Source of the DNA: Candidatus Latescibacterota bacterium
Lineage (GTDB): Bacteria; Latescibacterota; UBA2968; UBA8231
Direction of reading: 5' to 3'
Length of the DNA: 64,000 nt
NCBI GenBank assembly: GCA_965221775.1
Contig: CBDCSU010000006.1
Span: forward strand, 2,400,001 to 2,464,000
Shown: positions 6,333 to 20,300 of the stretch, in pieces
Position numbering within the stretch: the first letter of the stretch is position 1
How the letters are laid out: the number at the start of each line of letters is the position of its first letter
Notes under the pieces: generated by a model
Seen by the model: only the letters and a program-made list of their open reading frames with translations
The model's database searches: none
What the model was told of the DNA's origin: nothing
Translations under genes and position numbers: made by a program

Positions 6333-6560
6333 TCATCCAACTTGATGCCGTTCAAACAGCAGATCGAGGGCCTCCAGCCCGAGAGCATGGACGGTCGTCT
6401 CGTTCTGGGCGGCGAGCACCTTCAATCGCTTCGCCTGCTCGGGTTCGAGGTACAGGACCGTGGCCTTCTTGCCACGCCGAGACGGGGCGATCTTGGCCTC
6501 GGCCTTCGGCTCGCCAGCGGTCCGCCCGGCGTCTGCGAGGGTTGGCTTAGCTTTGGACAT
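6333..6560 (-). CDS. Ribbon-helix-helix DNA-binding protein, ParG-like centromere-binding partner
   Basis: 75 aa; flexible N-terminus then KATVLYLEPEQAKRLKVLAAQNETTVHALGLEALDLLF; overlaps the 3' end of parA (type Ib arrangement). Confidence 0.8.
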   Translation of the reverse strand: MSKAKPTLADAGRTAGEPKAEAKIAPSRRGKKATVLYLEPEQAKRLKVLAAQNETTVHALGLEALDLLFERHQVG

Positions 6561-7183
6561 GAGCCCCTCCTTCCGTCTGAGTCCATCGGTACAAGGCTTC
6601 GGTCTCGGTTGCCGCCAAGGATCGGGGCTCGGCTTCCTGAGCGGTCCTCCCGGCCGTGAACGCCCGGACGTGCGCGACCCGGGCCCCCAGGGTCACCGGA
6701 ACCCGAACTGCCTGGAAGCTCTGAATGGCCGTCGTCGCTTGGGCCGTCCAGTCGCCGCGAGGAGGGACAGCGTTCAGCACCACCGCCGCCGCCGTCTCCG
6801 CGATCCGGCCCACGTCCAGAGTCGCCGGGATGGCCGCCAGATCCACCGCGGACGGTCGACACGGCACGAGCATCAGATCCGCACAACGAGCCGCCTCCAC
6901 CGCCCCGCCGGCCTCTCGAGGAGCCGTGTCGATCACCGCCAAGGAGGCCCCTGCACCCCGGGCCGCATCGAGCACCCGCGCCAGCCGGGGTGGATGAGCC
7001 GTCACCACCGGCGGCGGATCTTCGCCTCGAAGGTCGCCCCAAACCGCCGTCGATCCCTGTTGGGTCCAGGTCGATCACAACAGCGTCGCCACCCGCGAGT
7101 TCGTGCGCCACCGCGAGGCCGACGGCCAAGGTCGTCTTGCCGCTCCCGCCCTTCTGTGATACCAGAGCAATCGTGCGCATCAT
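6547..7183 (-). CDS. parA: ParA-family partition ATPase (type Ib), +1 frameshift at ~7060
   Basis: SQKGGSGKTT deviant Walker A, IDLDP, VIDTAP, ADLMLVPCRPS; removing one base at 7060-7061 restores DLDPQGSTAVWGDLRGEDPPPVVTAH. Confidence 0.85.
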
Positions 7184-7195
7184 GCTAACTATGCT
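7179..7195. promoter_or_regulatory. parS/operator-like 9-bp-period repeats over the parA start
   Basis: ATCATGCT-A-ACTATGCT; the same motif recurs at 10352-10427. Confidence 0.5.
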
Positions 7196-7381
7196 ACGAT
7201 GAAGACACCGCTCGCGCAAGGGAAGATCGTCGCCCCCGGAGGCTTCCGGGGCCCGATAGCCCGGAAGGGGGTTGGTTGGAGGTGGCCGGAAGGATTATCC
7301 GCCCGCCCCGTGCCCCGGCAAACACAGGCCCAAGGCCTAGCCTGCGCGTTCCGCGGGCGCGAACCCCCAGGAGAGGGGGGG

Positions 7382-10351: not shown

Positions 10352-10427
10352 GGCATGATTACCCTGCTAATCATGCTTGACAAAGGCATCCTCGGCGTAT
10401 TATCATGCTCATCATGCTTACTATGAT
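10352..10427 (+). promoter_or_regulatory. Sigma70-like promoter of the small-gene array, embedded in operator-like repeats
   Basis: TTGACA 10377-10382; TATTAT/TATCAT 10398-10406; inverted repeat GCATGATTA-N6-TAATCATGC; ATCATGCT at 10370, 10402, 10411. Confidence 0.65.
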
Positions 10428-11776: not shown

Positions 11777-11922
11777 TGGATTGGGCGCAGGTCACCCTGA
11801 TGACCGTGGTGCTTGTCGGCCCGGTCCTCGCCGTCGTGTTCGCCGTGCTGGAGTGGTGGACGTGGTGGCGCGACGAACGGCGGGGGGAGCATCCCCCGCG
11901 CCGGTGCGGGAGGCCGTCATGA
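11776..11922 (+). CDS. Small single-TM membrane protein
   Basis: MDWAQVTLMTVVLVGPVLAVVFAVLEWW; coupled start. Confidence 0.55.
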   Translation: MDWAQVTLMTVVLVGPVLAVVFAVLEWWTWWRDERRGEHPPRRCGRPS

Positions 11923-12305
11923 CCCTTCGCGCCAGGATCGTCGACGTGCGCCGCCGGATCGCCGAGGGGTGCGGGCTGGTAGCCTCGATCGAGGCCGCAT
12001 CCACCACGGACGCCGAGTACAACACCCTCATGGATCTGTGCAACGCCGCCTGTGAGGACGACTACGACGGGCCGGACATGACGGGGGATCAGGCTCTCGC
12101 GATCCTCGCCAAGATGGAGCCCGTCTGGCTCTACACCGTGGTCGAGGCTGAGATGTTCGGCTCCTCGGCCTGGCTGGTGGTGCGCGAGGACGGGGCCGTG
12201 TGCGGCTACCGGCACGGGCTGTATCCGGCCCTCGAGTACGCCGTCGAGCGCATGGAAGCCGACGAGCGCACACGCCACCTGTGGGAGGAAGCCCCTTGCC
12301 GCTGA
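11919..12305 (+). CDS. Hypothetical protein whose stop codon lies in the hammerhead core
   Basis: ATGA overlap start (MTLRARIVDV...); TGA 12303-12305 is the UGA of CUGACGA. Confidence 0.65.
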   Translation: MTLRARIVDVRRRIAEGCGLVASIEAASTTDAEYNTLMDLCNAACEDDYDGPDMTGDQALAILAKMEPVWLYTVVEAEMFGSSAWLVVREDGAVCGYRHGLYPALEYAVERMEADERTRHLWEEAPCR

Positions 12306-12368
12306 CGAGTGGGCCGGCCGGCGGGCCGGCTCCGAAATGCCCCTTCGGGGGCATACGGCTATCCCGCC
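12298..12368 (+). ncRNA. Type I hammerhead ribozyme
   Basis: GCCG-CUGACGA-G-U-GGGCCGGCC(GGCG)GGCCGGCUC-C-GAAA-UGCCCC(UUCG)GGGGCA-UA-CGGC; all core bases and three stems present; loop II GGCG can pair with CGCC 12365-12368; predicted cut after A12355. Confidence 0.9.
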
Positions 12369-12400
12369 GAGAGCACCCCGTATCCCTTCAGGAGGGAACC

Positions 12401-13069
12401 ATGACCACCTTGCAGGACATCCCGACGGCGGCGCGCCTGCGCGAGCTCGCCGCCCACGTGGAGAAGCTGCCCAGGCAGCCGCTGCGCAACGGCTGCTACA
12501 AGCCGTCGCACATGGGCACCGGCAGCCTCTACGCGCCGCCCCGCGGCTTCAACATGAGCACCTACGCCGCCGCTCACGCGGCGCCGGACGGGGGCCGGTG
12601 CAACACGGCGGCCTGCCTCGCCGGCCACGCCTGCTCCCTGTGGACCGATCTGCCGGCCCACAACTGGGACGCCCACCACGGACAGATCGCCCTGGGGCTG
12701 CGAGCCGCCGAGCGCAACTGCCTGTTCATCCCGCAGATCGCCACCCTCCACATGCGGCCCGAGGTGAACGGCACGCTGTCGGAGATCGAGCCGGCCACCG
12801 CCGCCGAGGCGTGCCGCCGGCTCGCCGACATCCGGGGCGCCGAGTACGTGCACGGCGAGCGGTGGGAGCACTGGCCGCAGTTCGCCGGCGCCCACGACAA
12901 CGCCGTGGAGCGCATGCTGACGCGGCGCCTGTGGGGCACCCTGGAGAGCCTGCGCGAGGACGCGGAGCTGTATGACGGCATCCTGTGCCCGACGTGCGGC
13001 GAGGACTTCACGCTCGACCTGGTCTGCCCGGTGTGCGACCTGCGCCGGGTGAGGGGGGCCGGCGGATGA
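12401..13069 (+). CDS. Phage-type protein with FNM..C.T.AC.AG motif and C-terminal CxxC..CxxC
   Basis: RBS GGAGGG; FNMSTY..CNTAACLAGHA; paralog of 14222-14764. Confidence 0.7.
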   Translation: MTTLQDIPTAARLRELAAHVEKLPRQPLRNGCYKPSHMGTGSLYAPPRGFNMSTYAAAHAAPDGGRCNTAACLAGHACSLWTDLPAHNWDAHHGQIALGLRAAERNCLFIPQIATLHMRPEVNGTLSEIEPATAAEACRRLADIRGAEYVHGERWEHWPQFAGAHDNAVERMLTRRLWGTLESLREDAELYDGILCPTCGEDFTLDLVCPVCDLRRVRGAGG

Positions 13070-13272
13070 TCCGGAATCGGAAGCGCCGTCAGCACCTGGA
13101 GCAGTTCGGCATCGACGGCACCGGCACGGAGACCGACCTGTCGGCTCGCGCCGCACGCCGCTACCAGCTGGCGAAGGCCGGCCATCAGTTCGCGTGGCCG
13201 TCCTACCTGTGCGGCGAGGAGCTGCCGTGTGGGATGTGCGACGCCTGCGTTCGAGGGGGGGTGTTGGACTGA
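13066..13272 (+). CDS. Small Cys-containing hypothetical protein
   Basis: ATGA overlap; C-terminal PCGMCDAC. Confidence 0.55.
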   Translation: MIRNRKRRQHLEQFGIDGTGTETDLSARAARRYQLAKAGHQFAWPSYLCGEELPCGMCDACVRGGVLD

Positions 13273-13640
13273 TGGCCATGACCATGACCCCCCTTCGGGC
13301 TCTGCGTGCCGCGCGCCGGCTGCTGACCGACAACCGGAAGTGGTGCCAGGGGGCTTCGGCCCGTGACTACGACGGGCGCGCAACCGACGTGCATGACCCC
13401 CACGCCGTGGCCTGGTGCGCCGGCGGCGCCCTGTGGAAGGTGGTCCCCGGAACCCTGCACGGCATCGACAACGACGTGTGCGATCGCGCCCTCCAGCGGC
13501 TGTGCGAGGCCGCCACGGGGGAGACGGAGGCGAAGGCCGGCGCCGCCAACCTCAACGACGACAGCGACCACGTGGCCGTGCTGGCGATGTACGACAAGGC
13601 CATCCGCTTCGAGGAGTGGGAGGAGGAAATCTACGCATGA
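13272..13640 (+). CDS. Phage protein resembling DUF6197 family, copy 1
   Basis: WCQGASARD..AVAWCAGGAL..NDDSDHVAVLAMYDKAI (family name from memory). Confidence 0.65.
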   Translation: MAMTMTPLRALRAARRLLTDNRKWCQGASARDYDGRATDVHDPHAVAWCAGGALWKVVPGTLHGIDNDVCDRALQRLCEAATGETEAKAGAANLNDDSDHVAVLAMYDKAIRFEEWEEEIYA

Positions 13641-14225: not shown

Positions 14226-14764
14226 ACTTCCCCACCCACCCCGTCACCGTGGCCCGGCTCCGGGAGTTGGCCGGCCACGTCGAGGAGATGCAGCACCTGC
14301 GCTTGGTCCTGGTCGACGCGCCGCCGGTCGAGGGGGCCGTCGTGTCCACGATCGCGGGGGGTCCCGAGCACTTCGACGCCTTCAACATGTCTCGGTACGC
14401 CGTCGACACCGAGTGCGGCACGGTGGGCTGTCTCGCCGGGCTCGCGTGTGGCAAGTGGGCCGAGGACGCCGACTCGTCGTGGTGGGGGTTCGCCAGCGGC
14501 ATGCGGGCGCTGCGCTTGGACACGCAGAACAAGGAGCAGTGCGAGTGGGCGCAGGCTCTGTTCGCGCCGCCGATGGGCGACATCGAGCTCGAGAGGCTGA
14601 AACCGACGACGGCGGCTCGCGCCTGCCGACGCTTGGCGGGCCTGCTGCACGCGATCGGGCAGTCGGGCCGGCCGTGGCAGTGCCACACGGACGCGGAGAC
14701 GCTCGCCGACGCGCTGTGGGGTCCCGAGGAGATCCTCTATCACGACGAAAGGAGCCCTGTCTGA
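14222..14764 (+). CDS. Phage-type protein with FNM..CGT.GC.AG motif, paralog of 12401-13069
   Basis: ARLRELAGHVE, FNMSRY..CGTVGCLAGLA, AARACRRLA shared with the paralog. Confidence 0.7.
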   Translation: MNFPTHPVTVARLRELAGHVEEMQHLRLVLVDAPPVEGAVVSTIAGGPEHFDAFNMSRYAVDTECGTVGCLAGLACGKWAEDADSSWWGFASGMRALRLDTQNKEQCEWAQALFAPPMGDIELERLKPTTAARACRRLAGLLHAIGQSGRPWQCHTDAETLADALWGPEEILYHDERSPV

Positions 14765-15528: not shown

Positions 15529-15591
15529 GTGCCGAAACGCGGGGGCCGACCGGCCCCCGCTTCGACGGGCCGCTCCCGTCCTGACGATGGC
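15520..15591 (+). ncRNA. Type II hammerhead ribozyme
   Basis: GCC-GAAA-C-GCGGGGGCC(GACC)GGCCCCCGC-UUC-GACGGG(CCGCU)CCCGUC-CUGACGA-U-GGC; loop I CCGCU can pair with GGCGG 15520-15524; one C-U mismatch at base of stem III; predicted cut after C15563. Confidence 0.8.
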
Positions 15592-19320: not shown

Positions 19321-20300
19321 TCAGATCGCCTCACGCCGCCAAGTGGCGGACGGCTTGATCAGGTCCTTGTACCGCAGCCTCTTGAAGGCCCCTGCCCGGA
19401 CCATGCCGCGCATCTGGTCGATGGTGTCCTGGGGCCGCTGGTTGTGCCGGCCCTCGAACTCCGCGACGTAGCGCGGCAGGTGCTTGGGGCTCATCCCATG
19501 GTAGGTGCCGTGGTACCCGCGCTTCAGCATGGACCAGAAGCTCTCCAGGCCGTTGGTGTGCGCTTGGCCGTCCACCCAAGCGCCGACGGAGTGCTTGCAT
19601 GCTTGCAGGTCTGGCGTTTCCGGAGGCCCTCGTAGGACGCGTTCTCGTCAGTGTACTTGTCGGCGTCCGGCTCCACGTGGGCCGCGACGAAGCCGTGCAA
19701 GCTGGCCTTGGTGCCGTCCGGCAGCACCCTGGCGCGAACCTCATTGGTCTGGCGGTCCTTGGCGCCTACCACGATGGCCTTGCCCACGGCCCCACGTCCG
19801 GCATGGAGCTTCTTCGCGGCGTGCTTGTTGCCCTCCAAGCCGCCCACGTACGTCTCATCCAACTCGACCGGCCCGTCCATCGGCTCAGGGTCTCGGGTGG
19901 AGTCGGCCCACGTCTCCCGGATGCGGTGCGCCAAGTGCCACGCGGTCTTCTGAGTGACGCCCAGGTCGCGGTGCAGTTTCATGCTGGACGTGCCCTTCAA
20001 GCCGGTAGCCATCAGGTAGAACGCCCAGGCCCAAACCTTGAAGCCCAGCTTGGAGCCCTGCATGACGGTCCCGGTCTTCACCGAGAAGTGCCGCCGGCAG
20101 CCCCGGCAACGGTAGGGCTGCGGCTTCCGGCTCGCCACGGTCTGGATATTCAACGAACCACAGTGGGGGCAGGCAACTCCGTCCGGCCACCTGGTCTGCG
20201 CGAACCACGCCTCCGCGGCCTCGTCCGTAGGGAACTTCTCTCCCAACTCGATCAGGGTCAACCCCTCGCGGTAGTGCTTGCCGGGTGCGCTCTGTGCCAT
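19321..20300 (-). pseudogene. IS1595-family (ISXO2-like) DDE transposase broken by an 8-bp duplication
   Basis: CPHCGS/CRGC zinc ribbon, VELDETYVGG, YTDE, HTNGLESFWS; TGCTTGCA duplicated at 19592-19607. Confidence 0.92.

Follow-up and report, generated by a model that had tools for sequence, protein, structure and literature searches.

A candidate type I hammerhead ribozyme in the 5′ leader of an uncharacterised gene from a Candidatus Latescibacterota genome

The 5′ leader of an uncharacterised gene in a Candidatus Latescibacterota genome contains a motif that we interpret, with a probability of roughly 80%, as a functional self-cleaving type I hammerhead ribozyme that would cut a polycistronic message. 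The motif lies at positions 12298 to 12359 on the + strand of a 64,000-nucleotide stretch of DNA (the window, to which all unmarked coordinates refer), has the complete conserved core and three helices of the class as read from the sequence, and appears to be conserved, with remodelling of stem III, in relatives. The element is most likely real, a new but unexceptional member of a familiar ribozyme class. Its host, a high-GC bacterium, occurs in sponge metagenomes. The features of the element and its immediate neighbourhood are as follows.

11919–12305, + strand: upstream gene, 128 aa, function unassigned, third-position GC of ∼0.9, protein P0005 recorded on the contig
12298–12301, + strand: 5′ strand of stem I, GCCG, pairing with CGGC at 12356–12359 (4 pairs)
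12302–12308, + strand: core strand C3 to A9, CUGACGA, agreeing with the consensus at all positions (C3-U4-G5-A6-N7-G8-A9)
12309–12333, + strand: stem II hairpin, with G12309-C12333 (G10.1-C11.1), a bulged U12310, and 9 further pairs (one G-U)
12334–12336, + strand: core strand G12-A13-A14, GAA, read from the sequence
12337–12354, + strand: stem III hairpin, with A12337-U12354 (A15.1-U16.1) and 6 further pairs (7 in all), loop UUCG
12355..12356, + strand: predicted cleavage site, after A17 (H17, A12355) and before C1.1 (12356) in hammerhead numbering
12356–12359, + strand: 3′ strand of stem I, CGGC, which would begin the 3′ cleavage product
12363–12368, + strand: tail CCCGCC, a possible pseudoknot partner of loop II
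12390–12396, + strand: Shine-Dalgarno sequence AGGAGGG, 4 nt before ATG 12401 and within the 45-nt post-cleavage leader
12401–13069, + strand: downstream gene, 222 aa, uncharacterised family with a C-terminal CxxC...CxxC, third-position GC of 0.95–1.0, protein P0001 recorded
13194–13640, + strand: gene for a DUF6197 protein, a marker of the genomic island described below

The whole motif is 62 nt long, and its helices contain 4, 10, and 7 pairs. Every core base that the earlier note on this DNA had named (CUGACGA, GAAA, AUA) is present, and its description of a stem I of 4 bp, a stem II of 9+1 bp, and a UUCG-capped stem III can be read from the sequence in full. Its placement of the cut after A12355 agrees with hammerhead numbering, which predicts the same site. 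The nucleotide at H17 is A12355, in line with the hammerhead rule that this position is not G, and stem II, whose loop is GGCG (12320–12323), is closed by a purine-pyrimidine pair (G12309-C12333), as the class requires. The calculated folding energies were −19.0 kcal/mol for stem II, with its closing pair enforced, and −12.3 kcal/mol for stem III. When the 62 nt were folded, the hammerhead fold lay just 2.2 kcal/mol above the minimum free energy (MFE) structure, which contains both hairpins; when longer contexts were folded, the difference was 5 to 6 kcal/mol. A hammerhead fold above the MFE is no surprise, since nearest-neighbour models take no account of the core. The folding energy by itself is unremarkable (z = −1.06).

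Covariance models from Rfam did not report the element. The whole window yielded no match at the gathering thresholds, and the four matches obtained for a 261-nt stretch at E ≤ 10 included no hammerhead family. The type I model, RF00163 (Hammerhead_1; gathering threshold, 34 bits), gave six weak matches across the organism's own genome, none at the ribozyme site. This model has 45 positions and short stems, and to it the 25-nt stem II and 18-nt stem III hairpins of the element represent long insertions; judging from the model length, these hairpins are the probable reason that it fails. Because RF00163 does not score the site, we assign the element to the hammerhead class, whose topology it shares with Hammerhead_1, and not to RF00163 itself. 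The Rfam type I model misses long-stemmed bacterial hammerheads of this kind, which are probably under-counted in high-GC genomes.

To estimate how often such a motif arises by chance, the genome was scanned with a strict type I descriptor of our own (core, closing pairs, hairpins of at least −3 kcal/mol, and a stem I of at least 4 pairs). A single match was obtained in both strands of the 5,363,968-base genome, at 12298–12359, and none was obtained in reversed and complemented copies of the genome, which keep its composition and hairpin content. A relaxed descriptor applied to the window likewise returned the hammerhead alone on the + strand, with no match on the − strand or in either control. 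Strict descriptors for type II and type III hammerheads found no match genome-wide. Sequence simulated from a third-order Markov null of the genome gave 8 matches per 90,000,000 bases, which corresponds to ∼0.011 per window, or ∼1 per genome with both strands counted. All eight of these null matches span 81 to 97 nt, against 62 nt here, and none has hairpins near −19.0 and −12.3 kcal/mol. The ribozyme stretch occurs once in the genome and is therefore not a dispersed repeat element.

The ribozyme stretch or relatives of it are present in sequencing runs labelled sponge metagenome and in runs labelled with host organisms (15 listed, none of them RNA). Of four runs compared in detail, one (X5) contains an identical copy. 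Three relatives, namely a second X5 contig and contigs of the runs X6 and X8, resemble the upstream gene only as far as 12289. X6 then has 149 foreign letters before likeness returns at 12297, one base 5′ of stem I, and continues to 12459 with 17 differences and 7 gap letters; X8 has ∼240 other letters after 12289, by arithmetic on the record length. Positions 12289/12297, at the 5′ edge of the ribozyme, are thus an apparent recombination or indel hot spot in these three relatives.

The X8 contig shows the 3′ half of the element as nucleotides. Positions 12321–12342, including the GAA core strand, are identical to those of the window, and the distal part of stem III is rebuilt: UCG, AGCU, and CGA stand within GCCC/GGGC, giving nine continuous pairs and the loop AGCU. 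Relative to the window, the pair C12343:G12348 has become U:A, a double change, and two extra pairs have been added. After stem III come U, C (H17, allowed by the consensus), CGGC, and then AAUCCCGCC, and the CCCGCC tail is kept.

Two further relatives, P0004 and P0027, are open reading frame (ORF) calls that read through the element and were compared via their peptides only. Their stem III was assessed by degenerate back-translation, in which three pairs are fixed on both sides and one base is free in 6 of the 9 to 10 pairs. P0004 is a call of 325 aa whose protein part shares 69% identity with that of the window. It reads ...VTQ PLTSGPAGGPAPK SAPRRGGYGN..., where the same frame of the window reads ...SPL PLTSGPAGGPAPK CPFGG.... 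All 13 codons over 12299–12337 give the window's residues, and the sequence upstream of them is unrelated. These 13 codons cover three of the four stem I 5′ bases, CUGACGAG, the whole of stem II, and GAAA; the eight codons that lie wholly within stem II all give the same residues, and the core peptide is compatible with CUG ACG AGY. The residues that follow are compatible with a different stem III of 10 pairs (9 to 10) and then U, A, and C-G-G-N, an outcome equalled by 22 of 2,000 residue shuffles. Residues 1 to 69 of P0004 are protein-like, have no homologue in this genome, and read on in the same frame across the ribozyme and into the gene behind it; they may represent an additional small gene that lacks a stop codon, or an artefact of the gene caller.

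P0027 is a call of 254 aa, 88% identical, that begins MSEPGRRAGSEMPLKGGAYGN. Its start decodes AUG (A6, U7, G8), followed by AGY, so that the free core position N7 has changed from C to U. Stem II has one extra base, and the window's G-U pair has become A-U. GAA follows, then residues compatible with a stem III of nine pairs with a different loop, and then U, A, and C-G-G-N (equalled by 26 of 2,000 shuffles). Across the element, P0027 traverses three frames of the window sequence.

In total, four versions of stem III (in the window, X8, P0004, and P0027) all appear able to pair, with the core and stem II little changed, and the only core change seen in the relatives is at N7. A stem III that is remodelled yet still pairs, beside a kept core and stem II, is the pattern that would be expected of a working hammerhead. 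Relatives were sparse elsewhere. No DNA relative was matched in a phage collection, and the matches among 61 related genomes were just pieces of 24 to 56 nt. Protein-pattern scans of genome, metagenome, and viral contig collections found no relatives. An 18-mer from the element picked out 51 stretches of genome contigs, none with CTGANGA within 45 nt upstream; a two-part element pattern found four stretches of metagenome contigs, none of them a hammerhead. The core-plus-GAAA pattern found nine stretches of genome contigs, none with the window's flanks as judged by eye, and no stretch of the viral contigs. A peptide search for further ORFs reading through the element gave no candidate.

The distance from the predicted cut to the downstream ATG hardly varies: it is 45 nt in the window and, as deduced from their peptides, 43 nt in P0004 and P0027. 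The peptide SLQEGTM, which spans the Shine-Dalgarno sequence, is also kept in these two relatives, and the ORF calls P0001, P0002, and P0028 start at the ATG equivalent to 12401. Given the varied upstream flanks and the steady distance from cut to ATG, the ribozyme appears to belong to the leader of the downstream gene and to travel with that gene. The downstream protein has no Pfam or PHROG family and no Atlas match, and profile comparison did not link it to the DUF6197 protein encoded nearby. A search of 1.84 billion representatives placed 22 proteins in its family at E ≤ 0.001, and a Pfam family was found in none of the eight relatives tested. Close homologues of the downstream protein, and likewise of the upstream protein, occur only on a few metagenome contigs. 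Distant relatives of the downstream gene lie on three viral contigs. Neither these three loci nor one same-genus locus with distant homologues has a hammerhead, by descriptor or by eye, or an Rfam match, so the ribozyme does not characterise the downstream gene family as a whole. A paralogue of the downstream protein is encoded at 14246–14746 (+) and is 32% identical to P0004 over 198 aa (tblastn) and 39% identical to P0001. Descriptor scans found no hammerhead before it.

The upstream gene starts at ATG 11919, and its TGA stop (12303–12305) coincides with U4-G5-A6 of the core. Its protein has no Pfam or PHROG family. The overlap of ribozyme and stop codon, to which the earlier note had drawn attention, is present and involves a real gene, but it is not conserved in relatives. 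P0003, a homologue sharing 92% identity with the upstream protein, stops 4 residues short of its end (...HLWED, against ...HLWEEAPCR in the window). Since the upstream flank varies (the 149 foreign letters in X6 and the unrelated upstream sequence of P0004) and the upstream protein ends earlier in one relative, the further suggestion that cleavage depends on translation of the upstream gene is unsupported. The overlap looks like a local accident of one genome, probably produced by deletion. The predicted cut falls 50 nt 3′ of the stop, so the cleaved upstream message would retain its stop codon. A ribosome stopped at 12303–12305 would be expected to unfold stem I and stem II rather than promote cleavage; since its footprint would span stem I and some of stem II, it would at most delay folding. 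A literature search for translation-coupled or stop-codon-overlapping hammerheads found nothing relevant, which is no proof of absence in print.

The earlier note also proposed a contact between loop II and the 3′ tail. GGCG (12320–12323) is indeed complementary to CGCC (12365–12368), but a match of four pairs is not above chance, as CGCC occurs in 26% of random 20-nt stretches of the genome. The pairing could be extended to GGCGGG:CCCGCC (12363–12368) if two stem II pairs opened; CCCGCC occurs in 2% of such stretches. The tail is compatible in P0027, and P0004 has one C-to-U change outside CGCC. No covariation between loop II and the tail was seen among the relatives compared. On complementarity, a pseudoknot between loop II and the tail is possible.

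Three other explanations of the element were considered. The motif may be a chance match, in which two GC-rich hairpins of a kind common in the island, RNA-stabilising or terminator-like, happen to stand beside CUGACGA, GAA, and UA, and the RNA is not cut. A loose descriptor does expect about one match per genome, no Rfam hammerhead model matches, and very many windows were scanned, so that rare matches will appear. In addition, related non-hammerhead leaders (the same-genus leader L084 and the leader at 15.6 kb in the window) likewise contain GC-rich hairpins capped by UUCG, and CUGACGA as well, implying a high local base rate of hairpin pairs. However, the null matches approached neither the energies of both hairpins nor the compact size, and the reversed and complemented genome copies gave none. 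The single-stranded core segments, and not the hairpins alone, are kept in relatives with different flanks and a different stem III, and the sole core change falls at the position that is free to vary. We therefore consider a chance match unlikely.

A conserved structured leader with another job, such as binding an RNase or other protein or acting as a translational operator for the downstream gene, might also resemble a hammerhead. The element, leader, and gene stay together behind different upstream sequences, and the leaders of neighbouring genes share motifs. Yet this explanation requires ∼11 specified core bases to coincide in exact register with three helices, and no particular alternative function is indicated; we rate it somewhat below a chance match. 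Least probable of all is that the stretch is coding and either extends the downstream protein at its N terminus or serves it as a linker. In favour of this, the frame of the downstream gene stays open from 12152 onwards, and the P0004 and P0027 calls take in the stretch. Against this, the passage of P0027 through three window frames would be intolerable for coding sequence, and the strong AGGAGGG lies 4 nt before ATG 12401, from which P0001, P0002, and P0028 are called. A self-cleaving hammerhead remains our preferred reading; points that weigh against it include a stem I of just 4 pairs, an unusually long stem II, and a tertiary contact that is no more than possible.

Between ∼10.7 and 17.4 kb, the + strand carries a close succession of small genes, nearly all without a family. 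The stretch from 6 to 22 kb, between a TonB-dependent receptor gene and a large gene with WD40 and collagenase domains, is a mobile-looking island, judged by its gene content. Besides the DUF6197 gene, the following features mark the island or may drive the gene row.

6422–7219, − strand: ParA-like ATPase, an island marker
10377–10406, + strand: promoter-like site, TTGACA-18 nt-TATCAT (11/12), which could start the gene row with the ribozyme
19524–20300, − strand: IS1595-family transposase, an island marker

Three promoter-like sites are present between 10000 and 15000, compared with a mean of 0.2 in shuffled sequence, and no terminator-like site was found on the + strand between the same positions. 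Transcription through the ribozyme, cleavage, and an effect on expression are inferred. A polycistronic + strand transcript of the island would run through the ribozyme. The stem II and stem III hairpins would form during transcription, the 4 pairs of stem I would close the three-way junction, and the 2′-OH of A12355 would attack the next phosphate. The upstream product would keep the stop codon and end in two stable hairpins and a 2′,3′-cyclic phosphate, while the downstream mRNA would start at C12356 with a 5′-OH and have the ribosome-binding site within its 45-nt leader. Cleavage would probably uncouple the downstream message from the upstream RNA, a role suggested for hammerheads beside single genes in phages and prophages.

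Perreault et al. 2011 (PMC3088659) describe hundreds of bacterial hammerheads, many of which flank single prophage genes, and suggest that those near integrases and prophages may cut long transcripts into gene-length messages. The element shares with the type I hammerheads described there the core consensus and the open-stem-I topology, as well as an intergenic position directly ahead of a single gene, within a mobile-looking element whose small genes stand in a row. The presence of the ParA-like, IS1595, and DUF6197 genes, and the occurrence of the downstream family on viral contigs, make the setting fit that description. The paper also reports a stem I/stem II pseudoknot in ∼40% of examples and a stem II commonly as short as 2 pairs; the element differs from them in a stem II of 10 pairs plus a bulge and in its high-GC, sponge-metagenome host. 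It thus adds a well-formed type I hammerhead to a lineage and habitat in which few have been described.

Because the element is fixed to one gene while the upstream sequence varies, it offers a simple test case for the role of bacterial hammerheads. RiboJ-type ribozyme insulators are synthetic, derive from a plant satellite RNA, and use a leader hammerhead to cut away upstream RNA, which makes the gene's expression independent of the sequence before it. The position in the leader is alike; for the present element, an insulating role is suggested by its travelling with the gene behind different upstream sequences. A more elaborate scenario, which we regard as improbable, would make the hammerhead, leader, and gene a portable cassette that serves as a natural insulator behind changing upstream genes. 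Here, a deletion would have fused the upstream frame onto the ribozyme, with U4-G5-A6 as its stop; termination and folding would be mutually exclusive, and the level of upstream translation would gate cleavage of the downstream message.

Another hammerhead-like element, imperfect and of type II topology, was observed at 15531–15591 (+), 3.2 kb downstream of the first and just before the gene that begins at ATG 15637. Its order is GCC, GAAA, stem III (9 pairs with a C·U mismatch), C, a 6-pair stem I hairpin, CUGACGA, an extra U, and GGC. The type II model RF02276 gives an end-to-end alignment that scores 16.5 bits (E = 0.53 on 201 nt), far below the gathering threshold of 37. A relaxed type II descriptor gave three matches genome-wide in the real orientations and three in the controls; only its location in the same gene row makes this element notable. 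A nearby type II-like element recalls the clustered hammerheads of prophages, although the element studied here is type I.

The intergenic leader at L084 2110–2205, in a same-genus genome (G004), contains a CCCC-UUCG-GGGG hairpin, CUGACGA, and a second UUCG hairpin. It was rejected as a hammerhead, having no GAAA strand. Its sequence, CCACAUCCCAC...GGAGGGGACAUG, resembles the leader at 15.6 kb in the window, and it may be a decayed relative.
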